A stretch of DNA of 64,000 nucleotides. Source: an uncultured Elusimicrobia bacterium (GTDB lineage Bacteria > Elusimicrobiota > Elusimicrobia > 2-01-FULL-59-12). Location of the stretch: the NCBI GenBank assembly GCA_963702895.1, contig OY969767.1, positions 1,632,001-1,696,000 of the forward strand, read 5' to 3'. Shown here in pieces: positions 15,220 through 35,051 of this stretch. The notes beneath the pieces were generated by a model. That model was not told the DNA's origin. It saw nothing but the letters and a program-made list of their open reading frames with translations, and made no database searches. Every line of letters begins with the position of its first letter. Within the stretch, counting starts at the first letter, position 1. A program made the position numbers and the translations under genes.

Positions 15220-15244
15220 TCGCTCGCCAGACGTCTGGCGAGCG

Positions 15245-15320
15245 ACCTCAAACCTCACATCGAGCACCTCAAATCTTAAAGATTTGCTATGTTCGTTTTG
15301 AGGTTTGAGGTGCCGTTCGA
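15245..15320. repeat. Inverted heptamer arms (ACCTCAA)n/(TTTGAGG)n across the 3' end of the four-helix-bundle gene
   Basis: acctcaa acctcac atcgagc acctcaa ... tttgagg tttgagg tg. Confidence 0.75.
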
Positions 15321-15671
15321 ATTCCGCTTGGCCGTTAGAACCGACTGAGACAAAATGGCGACAAATTCTCCGGCTTCCTGGATCAGACCTGATAGGTCCT
15401 CGGAGACCTGAAACTCTGCCGCGCGGACGAGCTCCAACCAGTAACGCGCCTCCCTTGCCTCTTTCAGTGCAAGCTGCAACTTGTGTAGGAAATCTGCCCG
15501 ACTTTCGGCGGCCCTGGCTTCTTGCAGATGAGCGCCGACAGAGGTTCCGCTTCGAAATAGCTGGTCTCCGAGATGTGCACCGACTTTATTCGCCGGCAAC
15601 TGCGCCATCAACTTCAACATTGCCGCCCCAAACGCTAAATACCGCTCATCAAACTGTTTGTTCCGGTGCAT
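15276..15671 (-). CDS. Four helix bundle protein (TIGR02436 / 23S-IVP-like family)
   Basis: QLFRSGTSVGAHLQEARAAESRADFLHKLQLALKEAREARYWL matches the family signature. Confidence 0.93.
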   Translation of the reverse strand: MHRNKQFDERYLAFGAAMLKLMAQLPANKVGAHLGDQLFRSGTSVGAHLQEARAAESRADFLHKLQLALKEAREARYWLELVRAAEFQVSEDLSGLIQEAGEFVAILSQSVLTAKRNSNGTSNLKTNIANL

Positions 15672-19486: not shown

Positions 19487-19891
19487 CTACTTATTACTCT
19501 TGTTTTGTTTGTTGCCTTTGCCTTGGCACATCGGGCAATCGCACCCCATAGGGCACTTGGAGCCGGGTCCTTTGGCTTTCATCTCTTCAAACTTTGCTTT
19601 TTGTTCCTCGGTTAGGATCGCCTTGATCTTTTCGTGGGTTTCCCGACGGACCTGCTGCAGTCGCTCCTGCTTTTCAGCAAGAATAGGCTTGACTTGCGCC
19701 TGCTGCTCGCTCGTCAAATTGAGCTTCTGGGTGAGACGCTCCAGTTGCTCTTCATCCCACTGAGCCATTTTTTCGGCTTTCCCCTGCTTGCCTTCGCCCA
19801 TGCCGCAATGACCACAATGCGCCGAAACGAACGCAGTGCTTAACACCAATAATCCTACGATCCCCAACGATTTGCTTAGCCACTTCATCAT
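19487..19891 (-). CDS. Exported Spy/CpxP-like (LTxxQ) protein with Cys/His-rich ends
   Basis: Signal peptide; LNLTSEQQAQ and ILTEEQKAKF motifs. Confidence 0.75.
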   Translation of the reverse strand: MMKWLSKSLGIVGLLVLSTAFVSAHCGHCGMGEGKQGKAEKMAQWDEEQLERLTQKLNLTSEQQAQVKPILAEKQERLQQVRRETHEKIKAILTEEQKAKFEEMKAKGPGSKCPMGCDCPMCQGKGNKQNKSNK

Positions 19892-20111
19892 GTCTGATCC
19901 TCCCTATTCGATGATACGAGTGTGTACACGAGCGTACTGAAATCCAAGTGCATCAAACTGTTGAACCCACGAGACCACAACATCCATCGAAGCATTTAGT
20001 TCCCATTCCAGCGCTCATAGCCGGTCCAATACCAGAAATGGTAAACTGTCGCGAATTTCGCGTTAGATTTGACCATTTGGCTTGTCTGGGTGTCAGAATT
20101 GGCCCGCTGAA

Positions 20112-20256
20112 TCGGGGCGTCCTGAGGTGTTGTTTTGTTGTCTATCGGGGTGGCGCCGTTGGTCAACTGGCTCGGGGCGTAGCGTCCCTGACGGTCGCCT
20201 AGCGGCGACCGGAGGGACAGTCCCTACACCCGAAGGGTGTGCGGGACGCAGTTGGT
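20112..20256 (+). pseudogene. Series of tRNA-Pro 5' fragments; the last is interrupted by a hairpin insert at about 20185-20248
   Basis: tcggggcgt (20112), cggggtggcgccgttggt (20146), cggggcgtagcg[insert]cagttggt (20173-20256). Confidence 0.8.
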
Positions 20257-20275
20257 GAAAATGCTGCTGCTGGGT

Positions 20276-20348
20276 CGGGGCGTAGCGCAGTTGGTAGCGC
20301 GCCTGCTTTGGGAGCAGGAGGTCCCGGGTTCAAATCCCGGCGCCCCGA
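20276..20348 (+). tRNA. tRNA-Pro (TGG)
   Basis: Cloverleaf; cctgc-tt-TGG-ga-gcagg; flanked by the inverted pair gctgctgctgggt / acccagcagcagc. Confidence 0.97.
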
Positions 20349-20357
20349 CCCAGCAGC

Positions 20358-20797
20358 AGCGCGGTCGCCAGACTTTTGGCGACAGGTCGCCGGTTCATCC
20401 GCCACACAACGGGCGGATGCCCGACTGTAGTGTGTCGGGCAAATCCGGCCGCCCCGAGTTTTTTTCGGGGCCGGGTTCCGCGCCACTACGTCGCTGGCGC
20501 GCCCGCCAGGATGTAGTGGCGGGAAATCCCGGCGCCCCGACCCAGTAGCGACAAAATAGCGCGGTCGCCAGGTGTCTGGCGACAGGTCGCCGGTTCATCC
20601 GCCACACATCGGGCGGATGCCCGATCGTAGTGTGTCGGGCAAATTCGGTCGCCCCGAGCCAGTTGATGGTGCGGTACCGGGTTCATCCGCCAGACAACCG
20701 GCGGATGCCCGCCTGACGTGTGGCGGGCAAATCCCGCCCGCCACTAAAACACGGCGGGCGCCCGCTGCGGTGCAGTAGCGGGCGGCGCCCCGAGCCA
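20358..20797 (+). pseudogene. Four tRNA-Pro 3' fragments, each interrupted in the T loop by a twin-hairpin insert
   Basis: ggttc[insert]aat...cgccccga at about 20384-20457, 20471-20543, 20584-20657 and 20677-20797. Confidence 0.88.
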
Positions 20798-20878
20798 TGG
20801 GGTAAATTTGATTATCGTCCCCGTAGTACAATGCCCGCCACATGTGCCGAGGCGGAGAGCTGTCTATGGGCCGTTATC

Positions 20879-20950
20879 GCGCCCTTAGCTCAATGGATAG
20901 AGCAGTAGCCTTCTAAGCTACTGATAGAGGTTCGATTCCTCTAGGGCGCA
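20879..20950 (+). tRNA. tRNA-Arg (TCT)
   Basis: Cloverleaf; gtagc-ct-TCT-aa-gctac. Confidence 0.96.
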
Positions 20951-21181
20951 AATTTATAGAGGATCTGAAGGATAACCGATAAGGACCCCCAGGCCCGGTT
21001 GAAGGAACATCATGAAGGTGTTACTCGATCGGCTCGTCCTTATATACCCTTTGAATTAGTCTATACTCAACACTTTGAAGATGCTGCCTTGGCCCGGAAG
21101 CGAGAGAAAATCTTTAAGATTGGAAAGGGAAGGCAGATCTTAAAGAGCATTTGGCGTGAGCATCATTTTCTGGGCCGTTAG
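20951..21181 (+). pseudogene. N-terminally decayed small GIY-YIG nuclease (UPF0213-like)
   Basis: TDKDPQARLKEHHEG...RPYIPFELVYTQHF...ARKREKIFKIGKGRQ; an upstream YRGS is out of frame and followed by a stop. Confidence 0.75.
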
Positions 21182-21244
21182 CTCAATTGGTAGAGCATTC
21201 GCCTCTTAAGCGACAGGTTGCCGGTTCGATTCCGGCACGGCCCA
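21172..21244 (+). tRNA. tRNA-Lys (CTT)
   Basis: Cloverleaf; tcgc-ct-CTT-aa-gcga. Confidence 0.95.
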
Positions 21245-21250
21245 CATTTA

Positions 21251-21354
21251 CAGCAGAGCAGAGAGCAGAGAGCAGAAATACGGCAAACATCTTTTATAGA
21301 ACGGCCGACTCTTGGAGGCCGACCTTTTCTCTGATTTCTGCTCTCTGATCTCTC
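21251..21354. repeat. Inverted heptamer arms (GCAGAGA)n/(TCTCTGM)n with a spacer
   Basis: cagagcagagagcagagagcagaaa ... tttctctgatttctgctctctgatctctc. Confidence 0.8.
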
Positions 21355-21368
21355 ATTTGCCGTTCTTG

Positions 21369-21466
21369 GCGCCCTTAGCTCAATTGGATAGAGCATCTGC
21401 CTTCCCCGCCACTGAGGCGTTGGCGGGTCCGCCAAAGCCATAGTGGCGGAGGAGCAGAGGGTTGGA
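21369..21466 (+). pseudogene. tRNA-Arg(TCG) 5' portion with a twin-hairpin insert inside the anticodon (21405-21450)
   Basis: gcgcccttagctcaattggatagagca-tctgc-ct-TC[insert]G-ga-gcaga-gggtt; 3' end missing. Confidence 0.88.
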
Positions 21467-21475
21467 TCGTTTTGA

Positions 21476-21547
21476 GCGCCCTTAGCTCAACGGATAGAGT
21501 ATCGGTCTTCGGAACCGATGATGAGGGTTCGAGTCCCCCAGGGCGCA
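21476..21547 (+). tRNA. tRNA-Arg (TCG)
   Basis: Cloverleaf; tcggt-ct-TCG-ga-accga; one mismatch in the T stem. Confidence 0.93.
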
Positions 21548-21553
21548 ATTTGT

Positions 21554-21660
21554 GGACCGGTGGCGCCCGCCACTACACCATGGCGGGCGTCCGCCAAGGT
21601 TTAGTGGCGGACGGAATTGGCAGACGCGTCCCGATCCTCGATATGGTTATTGTCGGGACG
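21554..21660 (+). pseudogene. tRNA-Leu 5' fragment with two hairpin inserts
   Basis: ggaccggtggcg[twin hairpin]gaattggcagacgcg[tcccga...tcggga]cg. Confidence 0.85.
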
Positions 21661-21684
21661 TACCGACCGATGAAGCTCGTGCCT

Positions 21685-21767
21685 GGACCGGTGGCGGAAT
21701 GGCAGACGCGCAAGGCTTAGGACCTTGTGCCCGCAAGGGTATGCGAGTTCGACTCTCGCCCGGTCCA
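21685..21767 (+). tRNA. tRNA-Leu (TAG)
   Basis: Cloverleaf with a long variable arm; caagg-ct-TAG-ga-ccttg; upstream of tig, a common position. Confidence 0.97.
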
Positions 21768-21793
21768 AGCACGAACTAATGCCGAGGACGGGA

Positions 21794-21985
21794 CAGACGC
21801 GCAAGGCTTACCTTCGCCTCCTGTATTTTAAGGATGCGATGGCCATCGATAAAACGATCGGCATTCGGCCGATCGTATCGTTGGGGACCTTGTGCCCCAC
21901 TTACGACTGTGGGGCCTGCGCGTTATAGGGAATTGAGGAAGCGCGGGCCCGCAAGGGCTTGCGAGTTCAACTCTCGCCCGGTCCA
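21794..21985 (+). pseudogene. tRNA-Leu 3' portion broken by inserts in the anticodon loop and at the variable arm
   Basis: cagacgcgcaaggctta[insert]ggaccttgtg[insert]gcccgcaagggcttgcgagttcaactctcgcccggtcca. Confidence 0.85.
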
Positions 21986-22031
21986 TTGGGTATTGTTCAC
22001 TCATTTACTGAATACAGCATGAAGGGATTTT

Positions 22032-23330
22032 ATGGAAACATTGGAAAAGCCGTTAACCACTAAAGTTAAAATCATCAAGGAAGAGGAGTGCGTTATCACG
22101 CTTTCTGTCGAGCTTCCCAAGGAGGAGGTCGCCCAAGAGCTGGAACATGTGTTTCAGAAGATCCAGTCACGCGCTTCCCTCCCGGGCTTTCGCGTCGGCA
22201 AGGCGCCGCTCGAGCTGGTCCGCAAGAGCTTCGCGGACCGGGCGCGCCAATCGATGCTCGAAGACCTGATCAGCCGGGCCTCAACCCAGGTCATTCGTGA
22301 GAAAAAGCTGGAAGCCATCGACACTCCGCGTGTCGAAAAGCTGGAGTATGATCTCGGCAAACCTTTGCTTTTCCACCTGCGCGTTGAAAAAGACCCAGTC
22401 GTGAAAGTCAAAGATTACAAGGGCATCAAGGTGAACAAGCCCTCCACGGCCCTGACCGAAGAGGAACTCTCCAAAACCATGGATGAGGTCCGCGAGCGCA
22501 ACGCCTCTCTGGTGGCCTCCACCGCACAGGTGGTCGGCAAATCCCATTTTGCCGTCATCGATTTCGAAGGAAAGATTGATGGCAAGCCTTTCCCGGGCGG
22601 CTCGGCGAAAAACTATCTCTTGGACATGAACCAGCCCCAGACGATCGCTGGGTTTAGCGAAGGGATCCTGGGAACCGAAGTGGGCAAGGAATGTTCCATC
22701 CAAGTCCGATTCCCAACGGACTACGCTCAGAAGCAGTGGGCGGGCAAAGAAGCCGTCTTTCAAGTGAAAGTCAATGAAATCAAAGAGAAAAAGCTGCCTC
22801 AACTCGATGATGATTTCGCCAAGGACCTGGGGCTGAGTTCGCTCGAGGAGCTCAAAAAGAAAGTCGAAGAGAATCTGCAAAAGGAAAAAGACGCGAAAGC
22901 GAAAAAAGAAGAGGAAGAGCAGCTTTTCCAAGCGCTTTTGGACAACCACAAGTTCGCCATTCCTCAGACGCTCATCGAAGAGCGCACGCAGACCCTGGCG
23001 AAGCGCATGCTCACAAATCTTCAAAGGCAAGGACTCATAGCCCAGGGCGATCAGCAGGCGGAGTCGACCGTTCGCGAGAAATGCCGGCCACAAGCGGAGC
23101 GCGATGTCCGACTCTCCTATATTCTGAAGGCGATCGCACAACAAGAAAAGCTAGAAGCCGGCCAGCCGGACGTCGAGGAGCTCAAAAAGAAGGCCTTGGC
23201 CGAGACCAAGGACAAGCCGGAGAACGTTGACAAATACTTCCAGGAGCGCGATTTGGCGATCCGGGCGTCTTTGACCGAAACAAAAGTGCTTGATTTTTTG
23301 AAAAAAAACGCCAAAATTAAGTCTAAGTAG
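22032..23330 (+). CDS. tig: Trigger factor
   Basis: [10 protein letters not shown] motif; FKBP domain; DDDFAKDLG. Confidence 0.97.
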
Positions 23331-34238: not shown

Positions 34239-34256
34239 AATCTCGAGCCAAATTTC

Positions 34257-34291
34257 GCCCCCGACTTAAAAGGTCGGTGCCCTGCCCCTGA
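34257..34291 (-). pseudogene. tRNA-Lys D-arm and anticodon-arm fragment upstream of the intact gene
   Basis: gcccccgacttaaaaggtcggtgc is an exact copy of 34193-34216, followed by a diverged D arm. Confidence 0.85.
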
Positions 34292-34491
34292 CCATCACTT
34301 TACCACGATAGCCGCAACAATTTCCCTTTGATGAAAGCAACTGTACCATCCGGAACTGCTTCTAAAGGACCCTCATTATATAAGATGTATAATGTTTCGA
34401 AATTTAGGGTCGATTCTCGTCAGAGAATGCTCACCCTTCTGTCTGGATCAGCGGCAAACCTCGTTTTCGTTTTGTGGTCTGGGCGCTGCAG

Positions 34492-34578
34492 GCCCCCATC
34501 GACTCGTGGTTAGGTCACAGCCCTTTTCCGCCACTAGGTCGTTGGCGGACCCGCCGCGATGGAGTGGCGGGCAAGGCT
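34492..34578 (+). pseudogene. Outermost tRNA-Glu 5' half with a twin-hairpin insert in the anticodon (34527-34571)
   Basis: gcccccatcgactcgtggttaggtcacagcccttt[insert]caaggct. Confidence 0.88.
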
Positions 34579-34617
34579 CCGCCACATGACCGGCGGATGA
34601 CCAAGAGTTTGTGTAGT

Positions 34618-34667
34618 GCCCCCATAGACTAGTGGTTAGGTCACAGCCCTTTCAAGGCTGTAGGACG
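34618..34667 (+). pseudogene. Middle tRNA-Glu 5' half
   Basis: Exact copy of the first 50 nt of the intact tRNA-Glu. Confidence 0.92.
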
Positions 34668-34701
34668 TAAGAGAAGTCTTCAGTGCGACTGGAATAGGCG
34701 T

Positions 34702-34773
34702 GCCCCCATAGACTAGTGGTTAGGTCACAGCCCTTTCAAGGCTGTAGGACGGGTTCGAATCCCGTTGGGGGCA
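34702..34773 (+). tRNA. tRNA-Glu (TTC), innermost intact copy, no encoded CCA
   Basis: Cloverleaf; cagcc-ct-TTC-aa-ggctg. Confidence 0.97.
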
Positions 34774-34810
34774 CGCTTATAACTCCCAGTCGCACTGAAG
34801 ACTTCTTGAA

Positions 34811-34880
34811 GGGTTCGCCCGCCACACAATCGGCGGGCGAGCGCCTGAAGTGTGGCGCTCGAATCCCGTTGGGGGCACCA
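34811..34880 (+). pseudogene. Middle tRNA-Glu 3' half with CCA and a twin-hairpin insert in the T loop
   Basis: gggttcg[insert 34818-34861]aatcccgttgggggcacca. Confidence 0.9.
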
Positions 34881-35051
34881 CACAAACTCTTGGTCATCCA
34901 CCGGCCGTGTGGCGGACGAATCCCGTCCCGCATCCTTGTAGCTAAGAGTGCGGGACTGTACCGGCTCATAAGCTCGCCCCAGCGAGCGGGTCAAAGGTTC
35001 GGTACGTTGGGGGCATATCGCTCACGAGTCAAGGATGGACATTGGATCATC

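Follow-up and report, generated by a model that had tools for sequence, protein, structure and literature searches.

Introduction

Split and permuted tRNA genes are known from Nanoarchaeum, Caldivirga and Cyanidioschyzon. In these genes the halves break at a loop and carry complementary flanks, no intact copy is present, and splicing machinery joins the halves. REP, BIME and REPIN palindromic repeats are short GC-rich hairpins that occur in many copies and are sometimes paired. The leader-trailer stems of rRNA operons (RNase III) are long helices of the 5′ and 3′ flanks that enclose a stable RNA gene.

Mobile DNA has also been described in and beside tRNA genes. According to the accessible portion of the SegB report, this free-standing GIY-YIG homing endonuclease from the tRNA cluster of T-even phages cuts inside tRNA genes with the cleavage motif RAWTSGAAC, and drives tandem amplification of the tRNA together with segB through homologous recombination (PMC13096335). 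The reverse complement of this motif appears to read like the T-loop consensus, a likeness that is ours and is absent from the accessible portion of the SegB paper. Integrative elements, as covered by the available part of their description, are marked by an intact tRNA gene and a partial copy 9-120 kb apart, with the integrase-bearing element between them and one side duplicated (PMC9897764). Group I introns with homing endonuclease genes occur in bacterial tRNA genes, as stated in the available part of the corresponding report (PMC3984707).

Here we analyse a tRNA-Pro(TGG) locus of an uncultured Elusimicrobia bacterium, located in a 64-kb stretch of DNA (the window) that corresponds to positions 1,632,001-1,696,000 of the forward strand of contig OY969767.1 in assembly GCA_963702895.1. 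We judge it likely that the locus preserves fossils of tRNA gene replacement and duplication events that nucleases provoked; it would then be a stack at the DNA level and not an RNA device. Our searches of the literature outside subscription journals turned up no account of such nested or plugged tRNA shells.

Results

Anatomy of the tRNA-Pro locus

The locus contains an intact tRNA-Pro(TGG) gene that is enclosed by a perfect 20-nt leader/trailer inverted repeat, which we refer to as a clamp and which the initial annotation had overlooked. The features of the live gene are as follows.

20037-20047 (+), conserved motif AATGGTAAACT, upstream of every shell
20257-20262 (+), 6-nt filler before the left arm of the clamp
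20263-20282 (+), left arm of the 20-nt clamp of the live gene (100%), made of 13 nt of leader and the acceptor strand
20276-20348 by Rfam (74.2 bits) or 20275-20352 by ARAGORN (+), live, intact tRNA-Pro(TGG) gene
20341-20360 (+), right arm of the 20-nt clamp, 100% complementary to 20263-20282

The right arm of the clamp meets the first downstream fragment, 3′ copy 1, with an overlap of 3 nt (agc). The clamp arm of the live gene occurs once in the genome. For this locus, a transposon with conserved terminal repeats was considered and rejected, as each arm of the Pro clamps is found once in the genome and its sequence changes from shell to shell and from relative to relative. A fixed target-site duplication was likewise rejected, with junction overlaps that vary inconsistently from 0 to 4 nt.

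Two dead copies enclose the live gene, each interrupted at its D loop: the inner one (shell C) holds the live gene there, and the older, outer one (shell B) holds shell C. In total, three 5′ fragments lie upstream of the live gene and four 3′ copies lie downstream, in a strictly nested order that had also escaped the initial annotation. Three nested inverted repeats (20 nt, 100%; 17 nt, 100%; 23 nt, 74%) surround the colinear 5′ and 3′ fragments. The pieces are listed below.

20097-20119 (+), left arm of a decayed 23-nt inverted repeat, the outermost of the three, with 74% complementarity to 20786-20808
20113-20119 (+), 5′ fragment A (cggggcg), acceptor strand only, inside the outermost left arm
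20127-20144 (+), T/G-rich spacer, 5′ strand of a previously proposed G-U helix
20146-20163 (+), 5′ fragment B of the outer dead copy, with acceptor strand, D stem and D loop to gttggt; its partner is 3′ copy 4
20163-20179 (+), left arm of the 17-nt inverted repeat clamping shell C, 100% complementary to 20650-20666
20173-20256 (+), 5′ fragment C, composed of cggggcgtagcg (20173-20184) and gcagttggt (20248-20256); its partner is 3′ copy 3
20184-20218 and 20220-20247 (+), two hairpins inserted in the D arm of fragment C, both present in predicted folds
20358-20457 (+), 3′ copy 1, with D-stem 3′ strand, plug at 20364-20383, aggtc, T arm and acceptor 3′ strand
20398-20441 (+), T-arm double-hairpin insert of 3′ copy 1, 44 nt, profile match E 7e-11 with T-loop flanks
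20459-20465 (+), T run before 3′ copy 2
20466-20544 (+), 3′ copy 2, duplicated from the live gene and dead, with the acceptor 5′ strand joined straight to the T arm
20479-20523 (+), T-loop hairpin insert of 3′ copy 2, 45 nt
20545-20557 (+), D-arm remnant (gtagcg-acaaaat), most of the 3′ strand of the proposed G-U helix
20558-20657 (+), 3′ copy 3, partner of fragment C, with plug at 20564-20583, 91% identical to copy 1
20598-20641 (+), T-loop double hairpin of 3′ copy 3, profile match E 4e-08
20650-20666 (+), right arm of the 17-nt inverted repeat, 100% complementary to 20163-20179
20667-20797 (+), 3′ copy 4, partner of fragment B, with the D-stem 3′ strand, lacking an anticodon arm and ending in cgccccgagcca
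20686-20729 (+), T-arm double hairpin of 3′ copy 4, profile match E 3e-10
20737-20758 and 20759-20784 (+), two extra hairpins of 3′ copy 4, between T stem and acceptor strand
20786-20808 (+), right arm of the outermost inverted repeat, containing cgccccgagccatgggg

Much of this anatomy agrees with the initial annotation, which had recognised the four 3′ copies, the start of copies 1 and 3 at agcgcg (20358 and 20558) and their duplication with a 200-bp period (91% identity over 101 nt), and the perfect complementarity of the arms around shell C, which extends over 17 nt. Its statement that the 5′ fragments stop at gttggt holds for fragments B and C, and fragment A consists of the acceptor strand only. 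The D-loop break after gttggt is common to shells B and C, and is also found in relatives G001 and G006, the latter from another genus. The tandem duplication of about 200 bp contributed two additional 3′ pieces, and part of 3′ copy 2 (20507-20549) is 79% identical to 20315-20357 of the live-gene region. A remnant comparable to that at 20545-20557 is present in another Elusimicrobia genome (L122), and a relative from the same genus (L007) has cgccccgagccatgggg, found here in the right outermost arm, in its outer shell.

The initial annotation had treated the tRNA as split at the D loop, and halves that join precisely at this loop between complementary flanks are what a true split or permuted gene, with halves joined as RNA, would offer. 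This explanation is hardly conceivable here, as both ARAGORN and Rfam identify a complete gene, the host is a bacterium, and the halves have no anticodon arm: shell C with copy 3 has the GTCGCC hairpin instead, and shell B with copy 4 has nothing. To our knowledge, bacteria possess no tRNA-splicing endonuclease.

The same fragments could be read as att-site duplications left behind by integrative elements of the integrase type after their deletion, given that tRNA genes are classic integration sites and that partial copies result, as the available part of the source describes (PMC9897764). This reading is very unlikely, as the fragments lie 10-200 bp apart with nothing between them, 5′ fragments are present besides 3′ fragments, no integrase domain was found by Pfam in nine neighbouring ORFs, and all four Phage_integrase (PF00589) matches of the genome are outside the window. 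In addition, the list of integrase sublocations in Williams 2002 reportedly does not include the D loop.

Hairpin plugs in the dead copies

The dead copies carry three types of hairpin plug: GTCGCC...GGCGAC hairpins where the anticodon arm would be, double hairpins inside every T loop, and a pair of hairpins in one D arm. The initial annotation had correctly reported that gtcgcca-loop-tggcgac replaces the anticodon arm in copies 1 and 3 (20364-20383 and 20564-20583) and that this resembles a hairpin 3′ of tRNA-His, which has the same stem core (~15224-15241). It had overlooked the hairpin inserts that occupy the T loops of all four 3′ copies and the D arm of fragment C. The 44-nt T-loop double hairpin is placed after GGTTCR. 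The 12 local hairpins at the locus add up to 93 bp, all Watson-Crick and free of mismatches, and pairing in plugs and clamps is retained via compensatory differences (module hairpin gac/gtc vs gcc/ggc). Selection on RNA or DNA structure is an alternative explanation of these differences.

Elsewhere in the genome, TCGCC-N-GGCGA hairpins occur at 178 sites, many of them short and of chance type, and a double-hairpin profile, with modules taken by pattern from the genome sequence, has 109 matches with both strands counted. A search for a RAYT/Y1 transposase yielded one partial genome match, a marginal one in an 89-aa frame (23.3 bits vs a cut-off of 23). This match is the one genomic candidate for a RAYT that would have moved REP-type hairpins into T loops. 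Beyond this genome, the anticodon plug was found in tRNA shells of several phyla, often near small GIY-YIG nuclease genes, and an identical plug of 14-20 nt recurs at one tRNA position across these lineages. A scan for GCGGTCGCC-N2-10-GGCGACAGGTC gave at least 136 matches in at least 121 stretches. At least 82 of these are in D-arm or T-arm context, at least 41 of which have a same-strand tRNA no more than 250 nt away, and among the plug matches listed at least 15 have the start of a GIY-YIG-like ORF within 200 nt.

Proposed pairing at the RNA level

The initial annotation further proposed that the T/G-rich spacer at 20127-20144 pairs with 20546-20562 through G-U wobbles, in a pseudoknot with the 17-nt repeat, as single-stranded RNA of tRNA sense. 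The G-U helix exists, with an RNAduplex energy of -17.7 kcal/mol compared to -5.1 on the opposite strand, but it does not exceed chance: an equal or better partner for the 18-mer 20127-20144 appears in 11 of 300 dinucleotide shuffles, and the 18-mer ranks 199th of the 232 18-nt windows in the locus. The helix and the 17-nt repeat compete with each other, with the minimum-energy fold taking one and the centroid fold the other. Its 3′ strand is a D-arm remnant with a loop that differs in the matching shells of L122. With this helix, the sole evidence offered for RNA-level pairing, at chance level, the pseudoknot and the RNA reading lack support. The stems are purely Watson-Crick. Covariation across relatives does not lend support, as the pairing partners are missing from orthologous loci of the same genus and family.

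The wider pairing statistics show no RNA-type signal. Genome-wide, the clamps (182 bp) hold 2 G.T, 3 A.C and 1 transversion mismatches, and the hairpins in tRNA flanks (1189 bp) hold 29 G.T vs 18 A.C. The counts of 2 vs 3 in the clamps indicate no sense-strand G-U bias. Compared to shuffles, folding is far more stable on both strands of the locus (z -17.5, and -11.7 for the antisense), with the sense strand ahead of the antisense by 25 kcal/mol.

The AATGGTAAACT motif is present in one copy 56-239 nt 5′ of tRNA-Pro(TGG) in six of six family loci, in neither of two class-level loci and in one of four further family loci. The motif may serve the tRNA operon as an extended -10 promoter element. 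A simple scan of 19850-22050 returned no sigma-70-type promoter, and the four terminator-like sites in the same interval are not above shuffle expectation. As the shells are placed between AATGGTAAACT and the live gene, their transcription is probable, and they may have a role in the precursor.

A functional RNA, in which the operon transcript forms nested tRNA-like domains including the long-range G-U pairing, would draw support from the folding advantage of the sense strand, the position of the shells downstream of AATGGTAAACT and the compensatory differences in the hairpins. In variants of this idea, the clamp helices insulate the folding or processing of the live tRNA, which they would part from look-alike strands, or the shells act as decoys or processing signals. 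We consider these readings decidedly unlikely, given a G-U helix at chance level, stems with no G-U excess and an antisense strand that also folds at z -11.7. Moreover, at gathering thresholds Rfam finds tRNAs and no other family in the whole window, with no intron ribozyme, and the shells are missing from 4 of 10 family loci and different in the other 6.

Recurrence in the genome and its relatives

The arrangement at tRNA-Pro is repeated across the genome, as 25 of 48 tRNA calls have fragments of their own gene within 3 kb at E<=0.01, and 30 of 48 at E<=1. These fragments lie on the strand of the gene, with one exception, an inverted-repeat arm at tRNA-Glu. Those that begin at tRNA position 1 are upstream, again with one exception, a match of the neighbouring paralogous tRNA-Arg, and those that extend to the tRNA 3′ end are downstream. 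Leader/trailer clamps surround 18 of the 48 tRNA genes, compared to 2 of 2256 mismatched leader/trailer pairs. Within the window, the tRNA-Glu locus is nested in the same way as tRNA-Pro, and ARAGORN reports a tRNA-Glu shell as a gene.

Ten tRNA-Pro(TGG) loci of the family were recovered. Six have shells, all unlike each other, and four have none, which is the patchy presence and absence among close relatives expected of homing elements. The T-stem alleles of these loci are exchanged between live genes and shells. In G000, the shells have gccgg/ccggc and the live gene has ccggg/cccgg; the former is the live-gene T stem in G003, G007, G008, G009 and G010, and G007 is the reverse of G000, with gccgg in the live gene and ccggg in the shell. 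This swap between genomes points to replacement and not to drift. The paralogous tRNA-Pro(CGG) carries the same T-stem allele as the live tRNA-Pro(TGG), and gene conversion by this paralogue could be an alternative source of the swap. A search of sequencing runs for this organism yielded none of RNA and one of DNA (0.09 of sampled words), reads of which gave low-depth contigs. Two of these are identical to 20624-20971 and 20962-21136, with no joints seen.

GIY-YIG nucleases beside tRNA genes

The nearest nuclease trace is located 170 nt downstream of the Pro stack, behind the next tRNA; the stack itself contains no nuclease gene.

20969-21178 (+), remnant of a small GIY-YIG nuclease gene, a 70-aa open frame with the N-terminus missing, between tRNA-Arg(TCT) and tRNA-Lys(CTT)

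The remnant matches PF01541 at E 2e-4 with 22.0 bits, just below the cut-off of 22.6. In relatives, eight of nine loci with homologues of this remnant adjoin a tRNA gene, and in the genome itself six of ten GIY-YIG matches abut tRNA genes; intact nuclease genes adjoin other tRNAs both here and in relatives. Behind tRNA-Asn, two tandem 312-bp units each contain a nuclease gene and a plugged 3′ fragment. In five genomes of other lineages, which according to their records are three candidate-phyla bacteria, a member of the Verrucomicrobiae and one of the Dehalococcoidales, 11 of 18 small GIY-YIG loci adjoin a tRNA, usually in the order plugged 5′ shell, nuclease gene, live tRNA. The tRNA-adjacent proteins are 79-87 aa long, comprise the catalytic domain only and are UPF0213/Slx1-like, closest to UPF0213 and with weak similarity to SLX1 (E 0.02-0.05). 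They include a 79-aa protein encoded beside tRNA-Ala(GGC) and an 86-aa protein encoded behind tRNA-Asn. Positions no more than 200 nt from a tRNA gene make up ~1% of the genome, so that the adjacency of GIY-YIG and tRNA genes is far above expectation. The association is partial: 8 of 30 family-level GIY-YIG loci adjoin a tRNA and 10 of 30 are tRNA-free, and many shell-bearing tRNAs have no nuclease gene.

These data bear on whether the locus is neutral debris that arose with neither a nuclease nor a selfish element. In such a scenario, slippage in replication and unequal recombination would produce partial tandem duplications at tRNA genes rich in hairpins, template switching would perfect acceptor-stem quasi-palindromes, and REP-like repeats would settle independently in dead copies. 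The abundance of hairpin repeats in the genome, the tandem arrays at Val-gac and Gln-ctg, a Pro stack without a nuclease gene and clamp arms specific to the locus are all compatible with it. We nevertheless regard neutral debris as unlikely, given that the same D-loop breakpoint occurs in two independent shells, that T-stem alleles are swapped between live and shell copies in different genomes, that several phyla share one 14-20-nt plug at one and the same tRNA position, and that the adjacency of GIY-YIG genes to tRNA genes far exceeds the genome expectation.

Discussion

Our analysis favours fossils of tRNA gene replacement and duplication, with a nuclease probably having provoked both in place. 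In this history, tRNA-Pro(TGG) would have been replaced in place at least two times, with shell B displaced first and shell C later. At each replacement, a clamped complete copy would land in the D loop of its predecessor, after GTTGGT, which would leave the predecessor with its 5′ part upstream and its 3′ part downstream. Subsequently, a tandem duplication (~200 bp) would have copied the unit of live gene and 3′ shell, and one duplicated copy would have decayed into copy 2 with copy 3 behind it. The dead pieces may have gained sequence-specific hairpin plugs afterwards or may have come with them.

As for the molecular steps, small GIY-YIG nucleases (UPF0213/Slx1-like, catalytic domain only) would break tRNA genes at loops, and the break would be repaired from a sister or foreign copy with copying that overshoots. 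Snap-back synthesis at the acceptor-stem palindrome could then generate a trailer complementary to the leader, and end joining would yield a fragment next to an intact gene. The plugs may disrupt homology and recognition sites in dead copies, and may spread between these copies via the conserved flanking tRNA bases.

More tentatively, and with clearly less confidence than in the replacement history itself, the locus may be the footprint of a previously undescribed class of selfish elements that invades tRNA genes across phyla, with at least two invasions at one D-loop site. A minimal GIY-YIG nuclease would break the resident gene at a loop and the element would be copied in. Without intron-like splicing, a spare complete or partial tRNA copy would keep the host alive, and the conserved palindromic plug would inactivate the displaced copy and protect it against re-cutting and against recombination events deleting the element. 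Cutting of an allele that lacks the element, with the element then copied in by repair, would have indirect support in the repeated breakpoints and in the T-stem alleles swapped between live and shell copies of different genomes.

If true, the tRNA genes of many uncultured bacteria would be battlegrounds of tiny nuclease-driven elements that overwrite genes in place. This would explain the false or duplicate tRNAs that tRNA finders report in such genomes, the swapping of tRNA alleles between lineages and the origin of some hairpin repeat families. For annotation, the sole tRNA gene of 20097-20808 is 20276-20348, and the remainder is pseudo-tRNA debris.

Each of the known systems shares a part of this picture. 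The Pro locus differs from split and permuted tRNA genes in having an intact gene and dead halves. As with REP repeats, many short palindromes are dispersed in the Elusimicrobia genome, but the hairpins here are at fixed sites of dead tRNA copies, namely at the anticodon arm and, in the T loop, behind GGTTCR. In contrast to rRNA operon stems, the clamp helix prolongs the acceptor stem directly, discriminator base included, is perfectly Watson-Crick with a sequence that varies between close relatives, and is bounded by pieces of the same tRNA gene. The locus resembles the sites of integrative elements in having an intact tRNA gene near a same-strand partial copy of itself, but the Pro pieces lie on both sides at distances of 10-200 bp, are nested and hairpin-plugged, and have no integrase nearby.

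The SegB system and the Elusimicrobia genome both place a GIY-YIG gene beside tRNA genes. SegB, however, comes from phages and has a DNA-binding part in addition, whereas the proteins here, known from sequence, consist of a catalytic domain of 79-87 aa; nesting, clamps and plugs are not described in the accessible portion of the SegB paper. With group I introns, judging from the available part of their report, the locus would share a selfish insertion in a tRNA gene that is harmless to the host. The intron is harmless by splicing out, whereas here a spare complete gene copy would serve, which would make the locus a testable case of a homing element that relies on a spare gene copy instead of splicing.

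Architecture of the tRNA-Pro(TGG) locus

The window holds a single complete tRNA-Pro(TGG) gene, at 20276-20348 (ARAGORN and Rfam agree), which rules out a split tRNA gene. The remainder of 20097-20808 consists of pieces of this gene, on one strand throughout. We refer to a broken, dead copy around the live gene as a shell, to the inverted repeat of leader and trailer around a tRNA gene as a clamp, and to a hairpin inserted in a dead copy as a plug.

Features of the tRNA-Pro(TGG) locus (window positions; gene pieces all on one strand)
20097-20119 / 20786-20808: outermost layer, imperfect repeat, 23 nt, 74%
5' fragment A: acceptor strand only
20146-20163: 5' fragment B, 3' end gttggt
20163-20179 / 20650-20666: perfect inverted repeat, 17 nt
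20173-20256: 5' fragment C, ending gttggt, two hairpins inserted in the D arm
20257-20262: six-base filler between fragment C and the 20-nt repeat
20263-20282 / 20341-20360: perfect inverted repeat, 20 nt, around the live gene
20358-20457: 3' copy 1, starting agcgcg
20466-20544: 3' copy 2, dead duplicate of the live gene, T arm fused to acceptor 5' strand
20558-20657: 3' copy 3, starting agcgcg
20667-20797: 3' copy 4, continuation of fragment B

The 20-nt repeat adds 13 bp to the live gene's acceptor stem and pairs the discriminator base. Reading out the locus confirmed the D-loop break described in the initial annotation, as fragments B and C end at gttggt and copies 1 and 3 begin at agcgcg, exactly the base that follows in the tRNA. 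The layered order of the pieces is therefore a strict nesting, B( C( live ) copy 1, copy 2, copy 3 ) copy 4. The four 3' copies and the ~200-bp duplication noted earlier were likewise recovered, with copies 1 and 3 91% identical and 20507-20549, in the copy 2 region, 79% identical to 20315-20357 of the live gene region. Copies 1-3 would be explained by one ~200 bp tandem duplication of a unit of live gene plus 3' shell.

In copies 1 and 3 the hairpin gtcgcca-loop-tggcgac, previously proposed to take the place of the anticodon arm, replaces it exactly. In addition, the T loops of all four 3' copies are broken after GGTTC(A); copy 2 has a 45-nt hairpin there, and copies 1, 3 and 4 each have a double hairpin of 44 nt. 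Copy 4 also carries two extra hairpins between T stem and acceptor strand. A profile was built on 13 T-loop inserts picked out of the genome by pattern; it gave 109 genome matches, counting both strands of the near-palindrome. By our own test, T-loop flanks surround 26 of the 105 near-full-length matches, and at E<=1e-8 all matches fall in a T loop on one strand or the other.

Pairing at the RNA or DNA level

The initial annotation also proposed two long-range pairings. The perfect 17-nt complementarity stands as a real repeat and is just the clamp of shell C, but a G-U helix formed as RNA is not supported. This helix (-17.7 kcal/mol as RNA) is at chance level against shuffles, the best partner of its 18-mer being equalled in 11 of 300, and the 18-mer ranks 199th of 232 locus windows. 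It also competes with the clamp, the minimum-energy fold taking the G-U helix and the centroid fold the clamp. A D-arm remnant (gtagcg-loop-agcgcg) supplies the 3' strand of the helix, and this remnant, though its loop differs, recurs in tRNA-Pro(CGG) shells of another Elusimicrobia genome (L122).

Fold energy is -448.9 kcal/mol for the sense strand (z -17.5) and -423.4 kcal/mol for the antisense (z -11.7). Genome-wide, the 121 hairpins that lie no more than 450 nt from a tRNA gene contain 29 G.T against 18 A.C in sense orientation, and 18 leader/trailer clamps (182 bp) contain two G.T, three A.C and one transversion, so G-U pairs are not in excess on the transcribed strand. No mismatch occurs in the 12 local hairpins of the Pro locus (93 bp), and the stems look young or are maintained as perfect at the DNA level. 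The motif AATG[GC]TAAACT lies upstream of the entire stack, as it does upstream of the gene in all six family loci fetched first, and therefore the shells probably belong to the primary transcript. A simple promoter scan at the locus found nothing.

Orthologous loci in the family

Ten orthologous tRNA-Pro(TGG) loci were compared. G001, of the same genus, and G006, of another, have one shell each with the D-loop break at the same position and the anticodon plug in the 3' shell; their clamp sequences are unlike (cccgccgaa and tgcctaccgaa). G003 (same genus) carries an uninterrupted plugged pseudo-tRNA, with the live gene between its T arm and acceptor strand, and shares its outer trailer gccatgggg with the genome of the window. 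In G007 the only shell is a 3' one, which carries the T-loop double hairpin; the G008 locus contains two 5' pseudo-copies, and the loci of G004, G005, G009 and G010 have no shells.

In the window's genome the T stem is ccggg/cccgg in the live gene versus gccgg/ccggc in the shells, the latter being the live allele in G003, G007, G008, G009 and G010. The live/shell relation in G007 is the opposite, and the G006 shell has gccag/ctggc. Compensated changes are unlikely in a dead copy, so these stems indicate that at least one of the loci has been overwritten by a different allele. This allele may derive from a foreign copy or from tRNA-Pro(CGG), a paralogue that bears the ccggg stem.

Shells and clamps across the genome

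Own fragments lie within 3 kb of 25 of 48 ARAGORN calls at E<=0.01, and of 30 at E<=1, where weak matches include cross-matches among paralogous tRNA-Arg genes. Fragments lie on the strand of their gene, except for an inverted-repeat arm at tRNA-Glu. Those starting at position 1 lie upstream, except for one that belongs to a neighbouring tRNA-Arg, and those extending to the tRNA 3' end lie downstream. A clamp score of at least 6 was reached by 18 of 48 genes versus 2 of 2256 mismatched leader/trailer pairs. The tRNA-Glu(TTC) stack (~34480-34930) is a second two-shell locus. The live gene, at 34702-34774, stands between two 5' and two 3' fragments, the clamps measure 26 and 18 nt, and hairpins are inserted in one anticodon loop and one T loop; the 87-nt 'tRNA-Glu' called by ARAGORN at 34618-34704 is a shell. 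At tRNA-Pro(CGG) a shell is broken within the anticodon loop, and the overlap is 4 nt.

Several further elements were also seen in the window.

Further elements
21369-21469: tRNA-Arg 5' pseudo-copy, two hairpins in the anticodon loop, live gene just downstream
21553-21628: tRNA-Leu(TAG) 5' pseudo-copy, two hairpins in the D loop, live gene just downstream
~21770-21990: more Leu fragments
21249-21358: long hairpin behind tRNA-Lys(CTT), made of inverted tandem units of 7-8 nt (cagagag-type); a similar element makes up the 120-bp array after tRNA-Val(GAC) at another genome locus
34240-34295 (-): tRNA-Lys(TTT) partial copy, positions 13-47, 94% identity, immediately upstream of the live gene
15276-15671 (-): '23S rRNA intervening sequence protein' family gene (PF05635, E 7e-16) directly behind tRNA-His, flanked by inverted repeat cctcaaacctca... 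/ ...tgaggtttgagg and a GTCGCC-type hairpin (region 15220-15330)

GIY-YIG nuclease genes and the plug across phyla

Six of the genome's ten PF01541 matches adjoin tRNA genes: at Gln-ttg, in the Ile/Ala spacer, at Ala-ggc, two behind Asn-gtt, and a remnant at 20969-21178, a truncated GIY-YIG frame of 70 aa between tRNA-Arg(TCT) and tRNA-Lys(CTT). The Pro stack is free of nuclease genes. Downstream of tRNA-Asn, a unit of trailer, nuclease gene and 3' fragment with T-loop double hairpin is repeated with a 312-bp period. In the family, 8 of 30 GIY-YIG loci (8 of the 26 that have small frames) have a tRNA at a distance of ~200 nt or less, and a tRNA is adjacent in 8 of 9 homologues of the remnant from other genomes. 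The proteins are 79-87 aa long; their closest structures are UPF0213 (1ywl at 1e-8, 1zg2 at 2e-8) and then, weakly, SLX1, and NCBIfam gives only a weak group-I-intron-endonuclease match. A second small GIY-YIG subfamily lies away from tRNAs (G000, the window's genome, C1 543339-543560 and 554279-554500), and each of its genes is framed by its own GC-rich hairpin pair.

Scanning species-representative genomes for the plug pattern GCGGTCGCC-N2-10-GGCGACAGGTC gave at least 136 matches in at least 121 stretches. Among the 136 matches listed, crude tests place 82 in a D-arm or T-arm context, and for 41 of these a tRNA on the same strand (Pro, Val, Ile, Ala or Arg) lies no more than 250 nt away; a GIY-YIG-like ORF begins within 200 nt of 15 matches. 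Among those listed, 5'-type shells lie upstream of the tRNA and 3'-type downstream, and record titles name Verrucomicrobiota, Planctomycetota, Elusimicrobia, Chloroflexota and several candidate-phyla bacteria. The 54 listed matches without tRNA context come mostly from high-G+C genomes, and we estimate that their number is of the order expected by chance. Five of the genomes with matches contain 18 small GIY-YIG loci, of which 11 have a tRNA no more than 300 nt away. Four loci were read. Each has, in order, a plugged 5' shell, composed of tRNA positions 1-26, the plug, AGGTC and a few bases of the T stem, then a nuclease ORF, a spacer of ~30 nt or more and the live tRNA. Two of the four have a doubled leader, before both tRNA copies. 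Two class-level relatives have the same order of shell, ORF and tRNA with an additional plugged 3' shell. At L151, in another genome, five tandem plugged 5' shells (period ~105 nt) lie upstream of tRNA-Pro(TGG).

Proposed mechanism and comparison with known systems

The anatomy, nesting, recurrence and associations above are observations; the cutting and repair steps that follow are a proposal. Small nucleases would break tRNA genes at loops, and the break would be repaired with a sister or foreign copy as template. The new strand, running past the end of the acceptor stem, could snap back at the acceptor palindrome and use the leader as template, giving a trailer perfectly complementary to the leader and abutting the displaced fragment; at the joint, 20358-20360, the overlap is 3 nt. 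Recurrence of such events at a single favoured site would produce concentric shells, and recombination, by analogy with phage SegB, tandem arrays. Plugs may spread among dead copies through the conserved flanking bases (GCG / AGGTC and GGTTCR / AATCC), and would disrupt homology and recognition sites alike.

We found no description of nested, clamped or plugged tRNA shells in the open-access full-text literature. As far as can be seen, the three-layer anatomy of the Pro locus, the swapped live/shell alleles and the anticodon-arm plug beside GIY-YIG genes, conserved across phyla, are new. Integrase scars are ruled out by the spacing, the two-sidedness and the absence of an integrase, and REP-type transposition lacks a clear transposase. 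The phage nuclease SegB is described as cutting within tRNA genes, with tandem arrays arising experimentally by recombination, and its cleavage motif is given as RAWTSGAAC (PMC13096335). By our own reading, the reverse complement of this motif appears to resemble the T loop. SegB is the closest documented system to the tRNA shells described here.
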